From contig OZ245365.1 of assembly GCA_965226495.1 (NCBI GenBank), forward strand, positions 5,824,001 through 5,888,000: 64,000 nucleotides of DNA, read 5' to 3'. The DNA comes from Candidatus Marinacidobacterales bacterium. GTDB taxonomy: Bacteria > Acidobacteriota > Vicinamibacteria > Marinacidobacterales > DATDRI01. The notes beneath the pieces are model-generated. The model made no database searches and was not told the origin of the DNA. It saw only the letters and a program-made list of their open reading frames with translations. The position numbers were made by a program, and so were the translations under genes. Of the stretch, positions 4,185-10,731 are shown one piece after another. Positions within the stretch are counted from its first letter, which is position 1. Each line of letters begins with the position of its first letter.

Positions 4185-5227
4185 CTGAGAGGAGCGGTCA
4201 GGGAATCGATGATGTGGTCCCAACCGATTCCACTTACCTTGGGCTTACCCTGTTTTCCCATCTCCCGAGCCCGATCGCGATTGGCGAAGAGACTCTTCAC
4301 CGCCTCGGCGATCGCCTCGGCTCGCGGCTCGACGATAAGGCCGTTCACTTCATGGTCTACGAACTCCAGGGTTCCTCCGGAATCGTTGCAAGTCACGACC
4401 GGCTTCCCGGCCATGAAAGCTTCCACTGTGACATAGCCGTAGTCTTCATCGAGGGGCGCGTAGAGAACCGCGAACGTGCCGGCGTAGAGCTCGAGTAGCT
4501 CTTCATCAGATACGAAGCCCTTGAGCACGACGCGATCCTGGAGCCCGAGCCGCTCGATCTGACGCTCCAGGTTCTCTCGCTGTGGCCCGGATCCTGCGAT
4601 GACCAACTTGGCTTCTCCGATGTGGCGAAAAGCGTCCACCAGGAGATCGCATCGCTTCAGTGGGTCGAGTCGTCCTGCGAACAGCGCGTAGTCACCGAAG
4701 GGGCCTTCTCGATAACGCCCCGCGTAATTCGGCGGCGGGTACAAGGGCGTCGATGCAATGTCGTTGTAGCGCTCGAGTCGGGAAGACACGTTCTGCGAAA
4801 TCGTGAAAACGGAGCGAGATTCGCGCAGCGTTTTGTTGTCCATGCGGATGATAGTTTGCCGGATCTCTTGTTCCTCGGGGTCGTCGGTGAAACTGCAGTA
4901 GGGGGTCCCATAAAGGTCGTAGACCTCGCGGTGCTGGTGGAAGAGCCAAGTGACTTTGGTCGGATGTCGAACGAGGTACGACGGAAATTTCGTGGCAATG
5001 ACCATATCGATCGGCATTCCGTTCGACTCGGTGATCTCCACCCAGCGCCAGAGGAGAGCCTGCTTGATGAGGTCTCGAACTGGATACCACTTGAAGGGTA
5101 TGTTGACGACGTCGACCGCATAGCCTCTCGTCTTGAGCTGTGCCGCGAGCTCGCCGACCAGGATCTCTGCTCCCCCGGTGATCAACGGGGCTTGGACGGA
5201 ACAAATGCAGATTGTTCGGCGTGGCAT
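4181..5227 (-). CDS. Glycosyltransferase family 4
   Basis: GGAE N-terminal motif, GRLDPLKR, EDYGYVTVEAF (EX7E). Confidence 0.9.
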   Translation of the reverse strand: MPRRTICICSVQAPLITGGAEILVGELAAQLKTRGYAVDVVNIPFKWYPVRDLIKQALLWRWVEITESNGMPIDMVIATKFPSYLVRHPTKVTWLFHQHREVYDLYGTPYCSFTDDPEEQEIRQTIIRMDNKTLRESRSVFTISQNVSSRLERYNDIASTPLYPPPNYAGRYREGPFGDYALFAGRLDPLKRCDLLVDAFRHIGEAKLVIAGSGPQRENLERQIERLGLQDRVVLKGFVSDEELLELYAGTFAVLYAPLDEDYGYVTVEAFMAGKPVVTCNDSGGTLEFVDHEVNGLIVEPRAEAIAEAVKSLFANRDRAREMGKQGKPKVSGIGWDHIIDSLTAPLR

Positions 5228-5239
5228 TTGGAGTAGGGC

Positions 5240-5908
5240 TCAGCGTTTCGCCGAGGCGGACAGCTTCTCCTCCAACTGGCGAGCCCTTTGAGCGATGTCC
5301 TTAAGCTCCTCCCGAGCTTCCTTGAGCGTGCCCTCGAGGTAGAGGTGGTTTTGCTCGGCGGTCTCGAAAACGAAATCCATGCGTTTGACCAGCTCGTGCA
5401 CGTGCCTGACCAGCTCTTGTTGAAGAATCAGATGACGCTCGTCGATCTCTTCCATCCGCTTCCCGTAAAGCCCGAGCATTTGATCGTAGTGCACTGAAAT
5501 TCGATCCAATCGTTTGTCGATGTACTGCACCAGCTCGTTTCCGAACCGGACTTGCGCGGAGTTGAGCTCGACCTGGCGCTCGACAATGGGGCCGAGGGCG
5601 AAGCGTACGAGTCTCTGGAGCGGGCGGCGCAGCGGAGAAAAAATCCTCGCGATTCGACCTGGGGGAAGGGTCTCGAAAGCGGTAGAGATGTCCCATGACG
5701 CATTCAACCGCTCGGTGCTCGGCGAGGTCGGGACCTCCGTCGATGGCGACTCCGCCGGCTGGACCGAACCTAGTGGAGCATGCGGCTCCGAGAGCTTCTG
5801 ATAGGGGGAAGGCTTGGGTGAAGGATTGTCTTCGGATCGCACGCGCTCGCGCACATCGCGGAGCGCGTCTGACACTTCCTCTTTTAGGGGATCGTTGGGC
5901 TCACCCAC
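5240..5908 (-). CDS. Coiled-coil hypothetical protein of the glycosyltransferase operon
   Basis: 222 aa ORF; amphipathic RRPLQRLVRF..Q..N segment followed by long heptad-rich helix; co-oriented with two GT4 genes. Confidence 0.65.
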   Translation of the reverse strand: MGEPNDPLKEEVSDALRDVRERVRSEDNPSPKPSPYQKLSEPHAPLGSVQPAESPSTEVPTSPSTERLNASWDISTAFETLPPGRIARIFSPLRRPLQRLVRFALGPIVERQVELNSAQVRFGNELVQYIDKRLDRISVHYDQMLGLYGKRMEEIDERHLILQQELVRHVHELVKRMDFVFETAEQNHLYLEGTLKEAREELKDIAQRARQLEEKLSASAKR

Positions 5909-5949
5909 AACAGATTTCTATCTTAGAAGTCTCGAGACTGTCAAAAGCA

Positions 5950-6018
5950 GAGTTTCGGGGACAGGTGATTTAATTCCGTATACCGGAAGGCTGAATCAAA
6001 TCACCTTTCCCGAAACTC
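5950..6018. repeat. Long inverted repeat (GGGGACAG-type REP-like element or terminator)
   Basis: gagtttcggggacaggtgattt ... aaatcacctttcccgaaactc; overlaps the stop of the MoeB fusion gene. Confidence 0.7.
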
Positions 6019-7483
6019 AGTAGCGAGGTAAAGAGGGGTCGATCCGCTCTGCCCAGGCGAGAATTCCTCCTTCGAGGTTTCTCACCTTGCGAAAGCCCAT
6101 GCCCATCAGGAATTGGACAGCCTGGGCGCTTCTCGCGCCACTTCGGCAGTGAACGACGATCTCGTCCGCCGAGCTCAACTGATTCACTGCCTGAGGGAGC
6201 TCACCGAGCGGGATCAGCTTGGCATCGTCTAGGTGAGCGATGTTCCACTCCTGCGTTTCCCGTACATCTAGGATGAAGACGTCTTCCTTATTATCCATGA
6301 GAGACTTCAGCTCCTCGACGGATATTGTCGGCACGCCCGCTCCGGTGCCCGCCGCCGCCGGTTCCTCGCGGGGGATGCCGCAGAATTGCTCGTAGTCTAT
6401 GAGCTCCTTGATGGTGGCGTGCTCGCCACAGAGCATGCAATCGGGATCTTTTCGAAGATTCAGCTCCCGGAAGTTCATTTTGAGAGCGTCGAAGAGCAGC
6501 AGCCTTCCAATGAGAGAACTCCCCACTCCTAGGATTAGTTTGACCACCTCGAGTGCCTGCAGCGTCCCCACGATCCCGGGGAGAACTCCCAAGACTCCGC
6601 CTTCCGCGCAGCTCGGGACGAGGCCGGGTGGTGGTGGTTCCGGATAGAGGCAGCGGTAGCAGGGTCCTTCTTTTGCGTAGAAGACCGAGGCCTGACCCTC
6701 GAAGCGGAAGATGCTGCCGTAGACGTTGGGCTTGCCTAGAAGCACGCAGGCATCGTTCACCAAATAGCGCGTCGGAAAATTGTCGGTGCCGTCTGCGACG
6801 ATGTCGTATTCTTGGAAGATCTCGAGAGCGTTCTCCGAGCTCAGCCGCACCTCGTGCGTATCGATCTGAATGTGTGGATTGATTCCTGCCAGTCGCTCCT
6901 TGGCGACCTCGAGCTTGGGTCGCCCGACGTCGCCCGTAGAGTAGGTCACCTGGCGTTGCAGGTTCGACGAGTCGACGACATCGAAGTCCACGAGCCCGAT
7001 GCGTCCGACTCCGGCCGCCGCGAGGTAGAGCCCAAGGGGAGCACCCAAACCTCCGGCGCCAATGAGTAGCACTTGGGCCTGCTTCAGCTTCGCCTGACCC
7101 TCCATGCCCACTTCGGGCATGATGAGGTGTCGGCTGTAGCGCTGGATCTCGTCGTGACTGAAGGTCACCCTGGCACTGGCCGTGCCGGTCGCTGCCCCAG
7201 CCCCTCCGGCCCCCCCGGCAATGCTGGGCACGATGCTCACCACGTCGGAGTCCGTCACCGGAGTCTCTTCTCGCGACAGGTATCGGATGTCCTCTTCGTT
7301 GACGTAGATGTTGACGAAGTTTCGGAGCTTCCCTTCATCATTGAATAAATGCTTCTTGAGGGGTTCGTACCGTTCGGTGAGACTAGTGAGCAACTCGGCC
7401 ACCGTATTGCCCTCGAGCTCGATAGCCTCGAGCTTGTCGGTATAAGCCCGTAGAGGGGTGGGAATCATTACCTTGACTGCCAT
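6017..7483 (-). CDS. moeZ: CysO/MoaD-like ubiquitin-fold sulfur carrier fused to MoeB/ThiF adenylyltransferase and rhodanese (Ubl-MoeZ fusion)
   Basis: Residues 1-91 MoaD/CysO-like ending VPSIAGG; then RYSRH, GAGGLG, SNLQRQ, CYRC, SCAEGG, CMLC; rhodanese HCRSGARS. Confidence 0.9.
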   Translation of the reverse strand: MAVKVMIPTPLRAYTDKLEAIELEGNTVAELLTSLTERYEPLKKHLFNDEGKLRNFVNIYVNEEDIRYLSREETPVTDSDVVSIVPSIAGGAGGAGAATGTASARVTFSHDEIQRYSRHLIMPEVGMEGQAKLKQAQVLLIGAGGLGAPLGLYLAAAGVGRIGLVDFDVVDSSNLQRQVTYSTGDVGRPKLEVAKERLAGINPHIQIDTHEVRLSSENALEIFQEYDIVADGTDNFPTRYLVNDACVLLGKPNVYGSIFRFEGQASVFYAKEGPCYRCLYPEPPPPGLVPSCAEGGVLGVLPGIVGTLQALEVVKLILGVGSSLIGRLLLFDALKMNFRELNLRKDPDCMLCGEHATIKELIDYEQFCGIPREEPAAAGTGAGVPTISVEELKSLMDNKEDVFILDVRETQEWNIAHLDDAKLIPLGELPQAVNQLSSADEIVVHCRSGARSAQAVQFLMGMGFRKVRNLEGGILAWAERIDPSLPRY

Positions 7484-7524
7484 AACAAGTACTCCTTCTT
7501 GTGAAATCGCTCGAAGCCGAGTGC

Positions 7525-7953
7525 CTAGACCGTTTGGAGTTCCTCTGCATCGAATTCGGAGCGGTCTTCCTTCATCACGAAAGACCGCACTTCGGTCGGT
7601 TCGCCCTTCTGGACGGAAACGATGACGTACGAAAAGAAAGGGAACGCATGTGCTAAATCATACCCCGAAGGAAACGCCGGGTGATCGGGGTGTGAGTGAT
7701 AGAAACCCAGCAAGGTCAATCCACGTGCCGACGCCTCGGCTTCGGCTCGCTGGTAGTCCTTGGGGGTGACGAGGAAGCGGCGATGGCGCTCACCGTCTCG
7801 AGAGTTGGCAAGCGGCTGCACGTCCTGAACGTCCTTGATAGTCATGTCCGGGCCTTCCTGCCGTCCGAACATGACACCACACGCTTCGTCGCGGTAGCTT
7901 TCTCGGCCATGACCGCGGATGGTCTCTAGTAGCCGTTCAGGAAATCGAATCAC
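7525..7953 (-). CDS. mec: JAB/Mov34 (M67) metallopeptidase, Mec-like CysO-cysteine peptidase
   Basis: EACG and JAMM motif HSHPDHPAFPSGYD; probable GTG start overlapping the cysM 3' end. Confidence 0.85.
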   Translation of the reverse strand: MIRFPERLLETIRGHGRESYRDEACGVMFGRQEGPDMTIKDVQDVQPLANSRDGERHRRFLVTPKDYQRAEAEASARGLTLLGFYHSHPDHPAFPSGYDLAHAFPFFSYVIVSVQKGEPTEVRSFVMKEDRSEFDAEELQTV

Positions 7954-8875
7954 GGGTCCACGGTCCTTCGGAGAGATACTTATCGCCACCGTCGGGGAAG
8001 ATCGTGACCACCACACCGTCTTTAACGAGCTCGGCAACATGCTCAACGGCGACCAAGGCGGCACCGGAAGAAAGGCCCACGAAAAGCCCGCGATCCCGGG
8101 ATAGCCGCAGGCAGGCCTGGTAGGCCTCTTCGGTCCGAATCGTCAGCGTCTCGTCGGCAATCGTGTCGTCATAAATCCCTGGCACCATAGCGGTCTCCAT
8201 ATGCTTCAAGCCTTCGATAGCGTGCATCGGTGAATCGGGCTGGAAGGATATGCACCGGATCGCCGGTGACAGCTCCTTGAGCCTACGACTATTCCCGACG
8301 AAGGTTCCGCTCGTTCCGAGCCCTGCGACGAAGTGCGTCACACGTCCGTCGGTTTGCTCCCAAATTTCTTCGGCCGTCGTCCGATAGTGGGCTTGCCAAT
8401 TAGCCGGATTGTTGTACTGATCCGGATAAAAGTAAAGGTCAGGCTTCTCAGCGGAAAGCTGGCGAGCCCTGACGATAGCACCATCCGTTCCCTCGAGGGC
8501 GCTCGTTTCGATGAGCTCCGCCCCGTAGGCTCGGAGGATCAGTTTCCTTTCCTTGCTGGCATTGGCGGGGAGGCACACTCGAACGCGGTACCCTTTCGCG
8601 GCCCCCAACATGGCGAACGAGATCCCCGTATTGCCGCTGGTGGCCTCGAGGATGACTTTGCCCGGTCTCAGGCGACCGCTCTTCTCCCCCTGTTGCAACA
8701 TCTCGAGGGCGGCCCGATCCTTAACCGATCCCCCTGGATTGAACCATTCGGCCTTGGCGTAGATCTCGGTACGAGAACCTTGGTCCTCTCCGATACTGAG
8801 CAGAGGGGTCCCGCCGACGGCCCCTTCCAACGTGCTCGGTCCCGCGGAAGTCCTTGTGTTTGAATAGCTTAGCAT
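7937..8875 (-). CDS. cysM: PLP-dependent cysteine synthase (CysM-like)
   Basis: NPGGSVKDR PLP lysine, EATSGNTG, GLGTSGT, FPDGGDKYLS; start position approximate. Confidence 0.88.
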   Translation of the reverse strand: MLSYSNTRTSAGPSTLEGAVGGTPLLSIGEDQGSRTEIYAKAEWFNPGGSVKDRAALEMLQQGEKSGRLRPGKVILEATSGNTGISFAMLGAAKGYRVRVCLPANASKERKLILRAYGAELIETSALEGTDGAIVRARQLSAEKPDLYFYPDQYNNPANWQAHYRTTAEEIWEQTDGRVTHFVAGLGTSGTFVGNSRRLKELSPAIRCISFQPDSPMHAIEGLKHMETAMVPGIYDDTIADETLTIRTEEAYQACLRLSRDRGLFVGLSSGAALVAVEHVAELVKDGVVVTIFPDGGDKYLSEGPWTRDSIS

Positions 8876-8943
8876 TCTGGGTTTGGTCAAGACCCAGTTC
8901 TCCCAACTGGTCGGTTCCTTGCAGACTGTGTATACCTTTGCAT

Positions 8944-8976
8944 ATTATAAATCCCCATCTTTATTAGTCAAGTTTA
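8944..8976 (-). promoter_or_regulatory. Sigma70-type promoter of the cys operon, overlapped by an imperfect Rrf2/IscR-like operator
   Basis: Minus strand TTGACT-N16-TATAAT (8971-8944); overlapping TAAATCCCCATCTTTATTAGTCAAGTTTA (8948-8976). Confidence 0.65.
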
Positions 8977-9142
8977 ATGGGCAACTAGGGAGCACACCAG
9001 GAATCACCGGCATAATTGGGGACGCGGAAGGGGTAAAAAGTGGACAGGGGGTGTAAAGTTTTGAGGCTCTCGCCGCCGGCGAGAAAACGCACAAAATCCC
9101 TTAAACTGCTGATTACTAACGGATTTTGGATTGGCCAGCGCT

Positions 9143-9158
9143 TTGGCACGGGACTTGA
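9143..9158 (+). promoter_or_regulatory. Sigma54-like -24/-12 promoter for the sigma factor gene
   Basis: TTGGCACG-GGAC-TTGA; GG-N10-GA (non-canonical -12), about 50 nt before the ATG. Confidence 0.5.
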
Positions 9159-9209
9159 AGGATACATAGCTAAGAGGAGGGAGCCCGTCCTCAGGAAAGG
9201 GAAGAACTT

Positions 9210-10232
9210 ATGAGAGCGACTGACATCGAAATCTCCGACGGCACTTACGAAACGGAGGTAGATGGCCGCCGCGTTGCCCTTGAGACAGCCGAAGCGGAAC
9301 TCGACGCGCGAGCCCGAGCCGCCGATGCCGCCGATCCCAGAGTCGGAGAGCTCGACACACTTGGCCAATACCTCAAGGAAACGCACCGTCATCCGCTTCT
9401 CAATCGGGAGCAGGAGCAGAAGGTCTCTCGGGCCATGCGAAAGTCCGAGCGGGCGCTCAAACGTAAGGATTCGACCACAAGCAAGAGGCGGGCTGCCCAA
9501 AGGGAGTTCGATGAGACCAGGGCCCGGATGATCGAGAGCAACCTTCGGTTGGTCGTTTCGATCGCCAAACGCTACAAAAACATGGGCATGGAGCTCACCG
9601 ACTTGGTGCAGGAGGGGAACATCGGGCTGATGCAGGCGGTCGAGCGGTTCGACCCTCGTCGTAATCTAAAGTTCTCCACCTACGCGACGTGGTGGATTCG
9701 CCAGGCCATCACCCGAGCCTTGTCGCAGAAGTCACGGACCATCAAGGTGCCCATCAACAAGCTGGAGCTCGTCCGGATCGCGACCCGATCCAAGGTCAAG
9801 CTGGAGGAGCAACTCGGACGAACACCGACCACGAAGGAGATCGCGAAGGCGGTCGGCGCTCCGGTCTACCAAGTGGAGGCGGCCATGCAGTCGATCCCTC
9901 ACCTCGAGTCTCTGGATGCGTTGGCGGTCGAGGACGGAAGCCCCCGCTGGGAGCTTCAGACTGACGAGCGGTCGGAGTCCCCTTGGCAGGCGGTCGTCGA
10001 TCGCGACATGCGTGAGAAGGTGGGGGCGACTCTCGAGCTCCTGCCTCCCCGTCAGCAGCTGATCGTGCGCATGCGCTTCGGGATTGGCTTCAACTCCGAA
10101 TACAATCTCGAGGAAATTGGTAAGGTCTTGAATCTGACGCGCGAACGCGTTCGTCAGCTTGAGGTCGAGGCCTTGCAGCGACTAAGGGTGGCTGGAGATC
10201 GGCGCGCGCTGAGCTACTTTTTGAAAAAGTGA
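9210..10232 (+). CDS. Sigma70-family RNA polymerase sigma factor (RpoD/RpoS-like, lacking region 1.1)
   Basis: DTLGQYLKE (1.2), [45 protein letters not shown] (4.2). Confidence 0.92.
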
Positions 10233-10245
10233 GACAAAACAACCG

Positions 10246-10278
10246 GCCCCGGTGGCGAAAGCTGCCGGGGCTTTTTTT
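10246..10278 (+). terminator. Intrinsic terminator
   Basis: gccccggtggc-GAAA-gctgccggggc followed by T7. Confidence 0.85.
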
Positions 10279-10284
10279 ATTGAG

Positions 10285-10731
10285 TCACAGAGCGGTGGGT
10301 GCCGTCAGCGCACCGAGAAGAGTGGGGATCCAGTTGATGAAGATGAGAATTAGAATGGGGACGAGGCTGAGATCGAGCACGCGGCAATAACGGGCCAACT
10401 CTTCCCGAAGGTTCGGCAGGCTCAACCAGGCGAATCGCGTCAATGACTGCAAGAGTAGGTAGACGAGAACGAGAATACCGATCCGATGGTGCGACGTACT
10501 TGCCGCCCAATCCGCGTTGGCAGCAGCCACCACTGAGCGGGTCAATCCACACCCCGGGCACGGTACCCCGCTTGCTTGTTTCATCACGCACAAATTCGGC
10601 ACGGCTCTCCCGCCGATGCGAAGCGACGTTTCGGTGTCTGGCGCCGGCGTGAGAAGCATCGCCAGGACCAGGATCGAAGCGCATGCCGCGAGAATCACGA
10701 GGTGGGGTGCTACCGGCTCGCGGTGCAACAT
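10285..10731 (-). CDS. DUF2752-like membrane protein
   Basis: C-x8-CPGCGLTRS motif between hydrophobic helices. Confidence 0.75.
   Translation of the reverse strand: MLHREPVAPHLVILAACASILVLAMLLTPAPDTETSLRIGGRAVPNLCVMKQASGVPCPGCGLTRSVVAAANADWAASTSHHRIGILVLVYLLLQSLTRFAWLSLPNLREELARYCRVLDLSLVPILILIFINWIPTLLGALTAPTAL

Follow-up and report, generated by a model that had tools for sequence, protein, structure and literature searches.

The 64,000-nucleotide (nt) stretch analysed here, hereafter the window (contig OZ245365.1 of assembly GCA_965226495.1, positions 5,824,001 to 5,888,000), belongs to a marine acidobacterium, Candidatus Marinacidobacterales bacterium, and carries on its minus strand three genes in the order cysM, JAB and cysO::moeZ, the last one coding for a CysO-like ubiquitin-like (Ubl) sulfur carrier in one frame with an E1 activating enzyme and a rhodanese domain (Table 1). 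We propose that these genes form an operon for protein-thiocarboxylate-dependent cysteine synthesis, in which the JAMM peptidase encoded by JAB frees the carrier after its Gly-Gly (GG), and we estimate the probability of this reading at about 0.7. The fusion itself appears to be a near-neutral variant, within easy reach, of a precursor design found across the clade, and not a stoichiometric device.

The fusion gene is an uninterrupted open reading frame (ORF) that begins MAVKVMIPTPLR. The frame and its Pfam domains agree with the original prediction, made from the letters alone, of a CysO-like domain (residues 1-91) ending IAGG and followed by an Ala/Gly linker, MoeB and rhodanese; the JAMM protease and the cysteine synthase that it placed immediately upstream were found there as Prok-JAB and PALP genes. 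Residues 86-104 read PSIAGG-AGGAGAATGTASAR. As translated, the GG of the carrier is not a free C-terminus, 397 in-frame residues following Gly91, and the predicted scissile bond, Gly91|Ala92, falls at 7211/7210. The solved structures closest to the carrier domain are CysO proteins, 4n6e_B (E 1.4e-17) and Mycobacterium tuberculosis CysO 3dwg_C (E 1e-15), both aligned over their full length and ending exactly at the GG equivalent to residues 90-91. The E1-rhodanese part matched PRK07411 and PRK07878, the latter (MoeZ) with 515 bits, short of its equivalog cut-off (647), and contains the GxGxxG motif, two CxxC pairs and a crossover-loop cysteine, Cys292. Its E1 fold matched Uba4 6yub, MoeB 1jw9 and ThiF 1zfn, with Uba4 6yub as the best solved match to the two domains together (sequence E 7.7e-61, Foldseek E 1.5e-35). 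The nucleotide-binding glycines, C275, C278, C292, C349 and C352, as well as C446, G449, R451 and S452 of the rhodanese domain, are invariant in an alignment of 84 fused proteins. The AlphaFold2 model of the whole protein exhibited three confident domains, with a mean predicted local distance difference test (pLDDT) of 85.2 and values below 50 at residues 88-104, the carrier tail and the linker, the linker being modelled as disordered. An internal start giving a separate E1 was considered and dropped, the GGAGG in the linker DNA lying 39 nt before the only nearby GTG.

The junction contains a homopolymer-rich GGGGGGG stretch and one relative (L048, genome G357) carries a copy broken by frameshifts, which might suggest that the fusion arose from faulty assembly or sequencing, or is a pseudogene-like read-through of recent origin. 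We regard this as having a negligible probability. Contigs from three other studies span the Gly91/Ala92 codons with 0 differences and 0 gaps (X13 record 6, 6712-8860; X7 record 23, 7008-7639; X3 record 15, 7112-7339), and no indel relative to them is listed anywhere in 5900-9000. All the sampled words of 6900-7600 were present in 17 runs from seven studies. The absence of a stop codon near 7211, on which the original prediction depended, is thus borne out by the identical contigs, and the genes are not separate ones. Moreover, the catalytic residues downstream of the junction are all conserved, and the same architecture was found in the database relatives and in 58 and 39 fused loci of the two genome samples described below.

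These relatives were collected by searching residues 1-115 against proteins of 268-854 residues, which, from 963 candidates, left 372 clusters at E<=1e-3. All the 120 relatives listed carry ThiS and ThiF and 117 of them also Rhodanese, the Ubl-MoeB-rhodanese architecture that the original prediction proposed to look for; the three others are shorter proteins of 293, 389 and 431 residues. They are named in the database 'molybdopterin-synthase adenylyltransferase MoeB' or 'adenylyltransferase/sulfurtransferase'. The fusion is therefore common and its frame real. A search with residues 1-125 against protein representatives gave 4936 matches at E<=1e-3 and 1426 at E<=1e-10; counting fused forms by length there was dropped, the 150 matches listed being mostly short metagenomic fragments. 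Together with the window, the listed relatives make 121 fused proteins, which are interrelated and do not amount to 121 independent observations. The motif P-S-[IV]-A-G-G is kept in 121/121 of them. It is followed by a mostly small residue (A 52, S 38, T 7, G 6, N 6, R 4, I 4, V 3, K 1) and, after 12-49 residues (median 17) counted from the GG, by RYSRH, the intervening sequence not being conserved. An invariant GG beside a freely varying linker is expected if the GG must become a terminus.

The window sits within a complete 6.34-Mb contig, in which genome-wide profile searches were done. Pfam ThiS (E<=0.01) was found in two places only, the fusion and an 81-residue protein that ends ...VSGG and is encoded at 152 kb, 5.7 Mb from the fusion and directly after a 145-residue ORF. 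Judging from its sequence, we take this ORF to be a putative MoaE, and hence the pair to be presumably MoaE and MoaD. No standalone carrier was found in the operon. Pfam ThiF matched the fusion, a divergent 398-residue protein (50 bits) and one place below threshold, and Prok-JAB gave only the operon peptidase above the cut-off, which makes it the sole Mec-type JAB. The genome thus contains no other CysO and no other MoeB-type E1, and the free-standing CysO that would have spoken for an uncleaved fusion did not appear. Since no other CysO was found, the fused domain is the only CysO-like candidate if CysM uses a protein thiocarboxylate. The fused E1, being the only MoeB-type enzyme of the genome, probably also serves the free MoaD for molybdopterin, by analogy with MoeZR in mycobacteria. 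As to the 398-residue protein (G000:C1:6225034-6226230, L004:991-2187 +, outside the window), its ThiF match is confined to profile positions 13-144, and its long N-terminal part could be assigned to no family; the protein may act as an E1-like component in defence or conjugation.

The presence of a presumed free MoaD leaves room for a different role of the fused domain, which would never be released and would not carry sulfur, serving instead as a regulatory or docking domain of the E1, as in the Campylobacter-type ThiF Ubl, while the E1 works on MoaD or another carrier. A Ubl fused to ThiF has a precedent in the accessible text of Iyer et al. 2006. The Campylobacter-type Ubl is, however, described as distinct from ThiS and accompanied by a standalone ThiS in its operon. 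Neither feature occurs here: the domain aligns along its whole length with Pfam ThiS and with solved CysO. In sister lineages the orthologue is a gene of its own in the corresponding place. The linker is short and variable, with a disordered model, and the GG, which is relevant only as a free terminus, is kept throughout the fused proteins. We consider such a docking role quite improbable.

The JAB protein has a complete JAMM motif, formed by the upstream Glu and HSHPDHPAFPSGYD, and its residues E23, H86, S87, H88, S96 and D99 are invariant in 52/52 aligned homologues; among solved structures, the Mov34/MPN protein 2kcq is the nearest to JAB (E 2.7e-28). The best NCBIfam match of the cysM product was TIGR01138 cysM, with 356 bits for a cut-off of 394, and two further cysteine-synthase/CBS-like paralogues are present in the genome (37% identity). 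The catalytic residues are intact in all three enzymes, CysM, JAB and the E1-rhodanese. Adenylation of ThiS, MoaD and CysO requires a free C-terminal carboxylate, so that the fused carrier would not be adenylated until it is cut. In mycobacteria, Mec+ hydrolyses the CysO-Gly-Gly-Cys adduct, and MoeZR activates both CysO and MoaD, according to the available text of the source (PMC3227635). The known Mec+ reaction concerns the peptide bond directly after the GG, with another leaving group, and for this reason we rate release by JAB best.

In the proposed mechanism, the operon JAMM peptidase would bind the Ubl domain and hydrolyse the Gly91-Ala92 bond in the disordered linker, giving CysO with a free carboxylate on its GG and a free E1-rhodanese enzyme. 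The E1 would then adenylate Gly91, and the rhodanese persulfide would turn the adenylate into a thiocarboxylate. CysM would add aminoacrylate from O-acetyl- or O-phospho-serine and, after an S-to-N acyl shift, CysO-Gly-Gly-Cys would be formed. The same JAMM peptidase would finally cut after the GG again and release cysteine. As the first cut would be the same reaction as the last, the hydrolysis of the peptide bond after CysO-GG, fusing the adjacent genes would cost nothing and would be tolerated whenever it arises.

The first step was modelled by co-folding JAB, carrier residues 1-105 and one zinc ion in three runs, with a 52-member alignment for each of the two proteins. The interface score ipSAE was 0.90 in all three runs, compared to 0.00 for the best of three controls, with at least 79% of the contacts in common between runs and a partner pLDDT of at least 87. 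The confident interface joins JAB residues 23, 86, 88 and 96-99, which comprise the Glu and the two His of the JAMM motif and its segment from Ser to Asp, with carrier residues 85-94, so that in the model the segment lying at the catalytic residues spans the Gly91-Ala92 bond.

The distribution of fused and unfused carriers was followed with the 91-residue domain as query on 401 phylum-sampled genomes, among them the unpublished G049 and G152. At E<=1e-6 the domain was found in 173 of these genomes, and 84 of the 150 matches listed lie, as read from the table, in open frames of at least 430 residues. Two samples of loci, both drawn from Acidobacteriota and neighbouring phyla, were scored by phmmer with the five domains of the window as queries. 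Sample 1 consisted of 100 places hand-chosen across families (60 long-frame and 40 short-frame, G049 and G152 excluded) plus the window, JAB being counted as adjacent on the same strand within 3 kb and cysM and E1-rhodanese within 4 kb. Sample 2 consisted of the 80 best-ranking places out of 596 confirmed ones in genomes representing species. The samples overlap (L009 and L120 are apparently the same 19,022-nt contig) and are not to be summed. In sample 1, JAB was adjacent to 53 and cysM to 47 of the 58 fused loci (window counted), and the 43 unfused loci had JAB in 27, cysM in 28 and an E1-rhodanese gene in 40. The corresponding numbers in sample 2 were 39 JAB and 37 cysM for 39 fused loci, and 37 JAB and 35 cysM for 41 unfused loci. 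The gene order cysM, JAB, cysO, moeZ is identical in fused and unfused operons. The locus nearest to the window comes from a Candidatus Marinacidobacterales metagenome-assembled genome (MAG), with 92% identity. Fused genes were found also in MAGs labelled Gemmatimonadota (2), Kryptoniota (1), Bacteroidota (1) and Cyanobacteriota (1); the labels of single fused cases assigned to Bifidobacteriales, Clostridia and Thermoplasmata were not trusted. Three long frames (L060, L063 and L104, of 551, 499 and 328 residues) are not E1 fusions, having no other Pfam domain upstream and a carrier that ends GG-stop, and were counted as unfused. An extra stand-alone rhodanese gene lies between cysM and JAB in nine loci of sample 1 and three of sample 2, which form one group of families including an unfused family (f4) of the window's own class.

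The linkage of cysM (47/58 and 37/39 fused loci) bears on the possibility that the module mainly serves protein conjugation, as for archaeal SAMP or Thermus TtuB, the E1 attaching the Ubl to lysines and the JAB removing it, with cysteine as a secondary product. NCBIfam scores of 51.6 bits for SAMP1, 344.5 for UbaA and 58.1 for the desampylase point in this direction, and conjugation was raised for JAB-linked operons in the accessible part of Iyer et al. 2006 (PMC1779556). All three scores are nevertheless below their equivalog cut-offs (60, 450 and 130, respectively), a rhodanese domain bearing the catalytic Cys always accompanies the E1, and the closest solved carriers are CysO proteins. Conjugation as the main function appears very improbable to us; as a side activity of the module it is possible.

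Unfused carriers were found to be blocked as well. In sample 1, 37/42 of them have 1-26 residues after the GG and 5 end at the GG (the frameshifted L048 left out), and in sample 2 41/41 have 1-24 residues, that is 78/83 over both samples, with tails such as GG-C, GG-LIS, GG-GGRER or GG-SACCSCCPLL. As unfused carriers are almost always tailed, processing after the GG would be the rule in this clade, and the fusion its extreme form and not the source of the requirement. When these 401 genomes were searched with the window JAB (E<=1e-10), 145 had both CysO and JAB, 28 CysO only, 17 JAB only and 211 neither. A JAB homologue was present in 37/37 genomes with tailed unfused carriers, in 56/57 fused genomes (57/58 with the window's own) and in 2/5 genomes with a GG-ended carrier. 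Nine tailed genomes without JAB beside the carrier all had a Prok-JAB match elsewhere (9/9, 74-89 bits), and among five fused loci without adjacent JAB a homologue was found elsewhere in the genome for 4. This pattern fits the cleavage hypothesis without proving it, the numbers being small and the genomes kin. The co-occurrence with JAB that the original prediction proposed to look for is seen at the level of genomes, and JAB is placed equally in unfused operons (27/43 and 37/41); release of the carrier after the GG by JAB is supported by the comparative data and the complex model, and JAB does not appear to be a special companion of the fusion.

Among Terriglobia-type genomes, several unfused CysO have Cys-rich tails (for example GG-SACCSCCPLL, GG-CCPLAACCCR, GG-CCPCGCCCCPR, GG-SSPRLLVCCCC and GG-LNLRCICR), and some have a lone Cys after the GG, an end that equals the CysO-cysteine adduct in sequence; six loci of sample 1 and five of sample 2 are of these two kinds. 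Possible roles of the tails are metal binding, carrying a persulfide, or a 'cysteine switch' on the zinc peptidase. In two genomes (L101 in G006, L102 in G132) CysO ends exactly GG with cysM directly after; the fetched stretches of 14 kb and 8.4 kb contained no E1 or JAB, and both genomes have a JAB homologue elsewhere. At L113:1-1905 (+) (genome G316) and on contigs G146:C213 and G028:C9, the JAB domain ends a long frame of 482-740 residues and the fused gene has no adjacent peptidase. The upstream part of the L113 frame has no Pfam match, and these frames may be fusions or only long GC-rich frames.

Several points weigh against release of the carrier by the operon peptidase, or against the pathway as a whole. 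JAB is about as regular in unfused operons, so that its adjacency says nothing specific about the fusion, and the residues N, R, I, V and K also occur after the GG, so any sequence rule for P1' is weak. In one fused genome, G086, a draft of 400 contigs with a completeness rating of 100%, the protein query found no Mec-type JAB; the Pfam JAB search gave there a single 32-bit match in a 238-residue frame, which we take to be of the RadC kind, while two congeners score 78 and 97 bits. The score of the complex may reflect memory of solved JAMM-Ubl complexes, the PfJAMM1 structures 5lda and 5ld9 being relatives in sequence, and the ipSAE mark (reached by 116/157 solved complexes and 2/215 mismatched pairs) was calibrated for the tool without the custom alignments and the riding zinc used here. 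The sampled genomes are kin and the samples overlapping, which makes the counts overstate independence, and the tallies of 401 include the two unpublished genomes. CysM is nearer to enterobacterial CysM (best solved relative E. coli CysM 2bht, E 1.8e-74) than to the CysO-dependent M. tuberculosis enzyme (3dwg_A, E 1.8e-53). Its proposed use of a protein thiocarboxylate is suggested by gene context, and use of O-phosphoserine is not implied, given the greater nearness to E. coli CysM. A literature search gave no report of a cleavage product, a thiocarboxylate or cysteine formation for any fused member.

Part of these points would agree with a release of the carrier after the GG that is not, or not only, due to the operon JAMM, a housekeeping endo- or carboxypeptidase or autocatalysis cutting the precursor and JAB freeing only cysteine. 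Many tails of 1-3 residues could indeed be removed by exopeptidases, and the equal presence of JAB in unfused operons, the loose P1' position and genome G086 go the same way. We nevertheless find this unlikely. Mec+ is known to cleave directly after CysO-GG, as far as described in the accessible text (PMC3227635), which makes a second enzyme unnecessary. JAB was found in all the tailed and nearly all the fused genomes and in only two of the five GG-ended ones, and the complex model sets the GG|A bond on the catalytic residues. G086 is a draft and both its congeners have the JAB gene.

The history of the fusion was examined on a FastTree tree of the E1-rhodanese part alone (94 loci, carrier and linker columns excluded). 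The tree requires 9 changes between the fused and unfused states, of which 8 are imposed by branches whose local support is 95% or more, compared to 28.8 on average for shuffled labels; as it is unrooted, gains and losses are indistinguishable. In 14 unfused loci per sample the E1 domain starts at most 310 nt from the carrier start, and the carrier and E1 genes of these loci would, judging from the offsets, abut or overlap, so that a one-base change could convert the unfused form into the fused one or the reverse. The original prediction had explained the fusion as fixing a 1:1 stoichiometry of carrier and enzyme. This is not supported, given a state that switches at least 8-9 times on the tree and unfused carriers that are blocked too, and the same two observations, frequent switching and tailed unfused carriers, are the grounds on which we describe the fusion as near-neutral.

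Two further architectures were observed. In genome G343, L012:5828-7864 (-) shows by Pfam JAB-ThiS-ThiF-Rhodanese in a single 679-residue frame, a single case that could come from a lost stop codon or a sequencing error. L062:2914-4377 (-) and L064:5825-7297 (-) have the order ThiS-Rhodanese-ThiF, with JAB upstream and cysM downstream. On the E1 tree these two loci branch together with good support, apart from the rest, suggesting an independent fusion. Both architectures point in the same direction as the repeated fusion or fission on this tree.

A stronger version of the precursor design would have C-terminal blocking selected for: nearly every CysO of the clade would be born blocked, by a tail or by its own E1, and the zinc peptidase would be an obligatory licensing step gating sulfur to cysteine and molybdopterin. 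We hold this to be doubtful. If it were true, the cut would free the only MoeB-type E1 from a tethered pseudo-substrate, with the new GG end already docked for adenylation, and the module would be a bacterial counterpart of ubiquitin-precursor processing, with one redox- or metal-sensitive protease as gate.

The window shares its four functions, a GG carrier, a cysteine synthase dependent on pyridoxal 5'-phosphate (PLP), a JAMM peptidase and an E1 with C-terminal rhodanese, with the CysO/CysM/Mec+/MoeZR system of Mycobacterium. M. tuberculosis CysO is a separate 93-residue protein ending in GG, whereas the carrier is here fused to the E1. In M. tuberculosis, moeZ lies apart from the cysO operon; here the four functions stand in one operon, with carrier and E1 in one gene. 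An operon type with this gene content, described in the accessible text of Iyer, Burroughs and Aravind 2006, is type 4c, which combines ThiS/MoaD, E1-rhodanese, JAB and cysteine synthase and includes Solibacter usitatus (PMC1779556). As described in that text, the carrier of type 4c is a separate gene, no E1 fusion or regular tails being mentioned, unlike the fused form here; the same text predicts that JAB frees ThiS/MoaD fused to other proteins (PMC1779556).

JAMM processing of carrier precursors is a wider theme. HcyS/HcyD, from Wolinella methionine synthesis, is a carrier and peptidase pair of this type. JAMM processing has also been proposed, in the part of the source available, for QbsE (GG-CF) with QbsD in the thioquinolobactin pathway and for CxnE (GG plus a decapeptide) with CxnF in the chuangxinmycin pathway (PMC5925218). 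In the QbsE/QbsD and CxnE/CxnF pairs, as here, residues follow the GG and an adjacent JAMM peptidase is proposed to act before a MoeZ-type E1. There, however, a short peptide is discarded and the product is a secondary metabolite, whereas here the blocking piece is a 397-residue E1, a cut would yield two functional proteins and the product would be cysteine. MoaX is cleaved after Gly, and we know of no JAMM peptidase linked to it. In this active MoaD-MoaE fusion of M. tuberculosis (described in the accessible text of PMC3227635) the sulfur carrier is, as here, N-terminally fused to a partner enzyme, which is a synthase subunit in MoaX and the E1 in the window. JAMM enzymes that free a GG-blocked Ubl are, according to the available parts of the sources, CsRpn11 for Caldiarchaeum CsUb (PMC6043591) and BilC for BilA (PMC11354881). 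Like these and the ubiquitin precursors (polyubiquitin and ubiquitin-ribosomal protein fusions), the carrier would be a Ubl born blocked at its GG and freed by a dedicated peptidase; those Ubl are however protein modifiers whose partner is not their own E1, whereas here a sulfur carrier is joined to its own E1. Uba4/MOCS3 follows the same two-domain E1-rhodanese logic, but its carrier Urm1 is made separately and has its GG free from the outset, with no fusion or JAMM step.

The system is thus not of a new kind, each element having a precedent and both the operon and the general prediction being in print since 2006. A full-text search, in which subscription journals were mostly outside the scope, gave no paper on a CysO-MoeZ fusion or on regular tails. 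The present analysis contributes four points: how far the fusion extends, that it was gained or lost repeatedly, the near-universal blocking of carriers in the clade and the association of blocked carriers with the peptidase. Within a textbook four-protein pathway, a substrate protein is encoded as part of its activating enzyme, and the JAMM peptidase of the operon gains a second proposed job. Proteolytic maturation of the carrier would be the norm across a clade of soil and marine bacteria, judging from the tails of unfused carriers and from all the fused ones examined. The naming of the fused proteins as 'MoeB' hides the carrier, and fusion genomes would be scored as lacking CysO. The clade also offers a natural, repeatedly evolved model of how a ubiquitin-style 'precursor plus dedicated peptidase' logic can arise when a stop codon is lost between neighbouring genes.

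Table 1 Features of the cysM-JAB-cysO::moeZ locus in the window
Feature	Position	Strand	Basis or remark
Promoter-like site TTGACT-16-TATAAT, 11/12 matches	8944..8971	-	upstream of cysM; consensus match only
cysM-type PLP cysteine synthase, 317 residues from TTG 8890, alternative ATG 8875	7937..8890	-	Pfam PALP, E 9.7e-69
JAMM/JAB metallopeptidase (Mec-like), 142 residues from GTG 7953	7525..7953	-	Prok-JAB, E 2.4e-24
Fusion gene, 488 residues: CysO-like Ubl, linker, E1, rhodanese	6017..7483	-	single ORF, Pfam
Ubl (CysO-like) domain, residues 1-91, end P-S-I-A-G-G	7211..7483	-	Pfam ThiS 5-91, E 7.9e-14
Linker AGGAGAATGTASA, residues 92-104 (13 residues, Ala/Gly/Thr)	7172..7210	-	alignment of relatives
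MoeB/MoeZ-type adenylating E1 domain, residues 105-372	6368..7171	-	Pfam ThiF 116-349, E 6.8e-84
Rhodanese domain, residues 383-488, active-site Cys446	6020..6337	-	Pfam Rhodanese 388-479, E 9.6e-20

The genes of the operon are, from their arrangement, predicted to be translationally coupled. The likeliest start of JAB gives an overlap of 17 nt with the end of cysM, and the 41-nt gap between JAB and the fusion gene contains AAGGAG, 8 nt before the ATG of the fusion. Position 8875, where the original prediction had ended the locus, is the second possible start of cysM. A single contig (7366-7555) from the RNA library X18 crosses the boundary between JAB and the fusion gene, too little for claiming transcription or co-transcription. 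Promoter-like consensus sites were found twice, compared to 1.1 expected in shuffled sequence. The terminator scan showed two weak sites only, both intragenic. Searching 5000-10500 against Rfam with a permissive threshold gave nothing relevant, and hence no riboswitch is claimed; matches to the S15 leader (inside the sigma-factor gene), mir-61 and sraL were rejected, all being below gathering scores.

Two neighbouring genes were noted. A sigma-70 family factor with regions 1.2, 2, 3 and 4 is encoded at 9210..10232 (+), divergent from the cysM operon and 320 nt apart; the cysO operon of M. tuberculosis is under stress-sigma control. On the same strand as the fusion gene and directly downstream of it, a 222-residue ORF at 5240..5908 (-), with no Pfam match at E<=0.001, has an N-terminus rich in Pro and Ser and a charged C-terminal half that looks helical.

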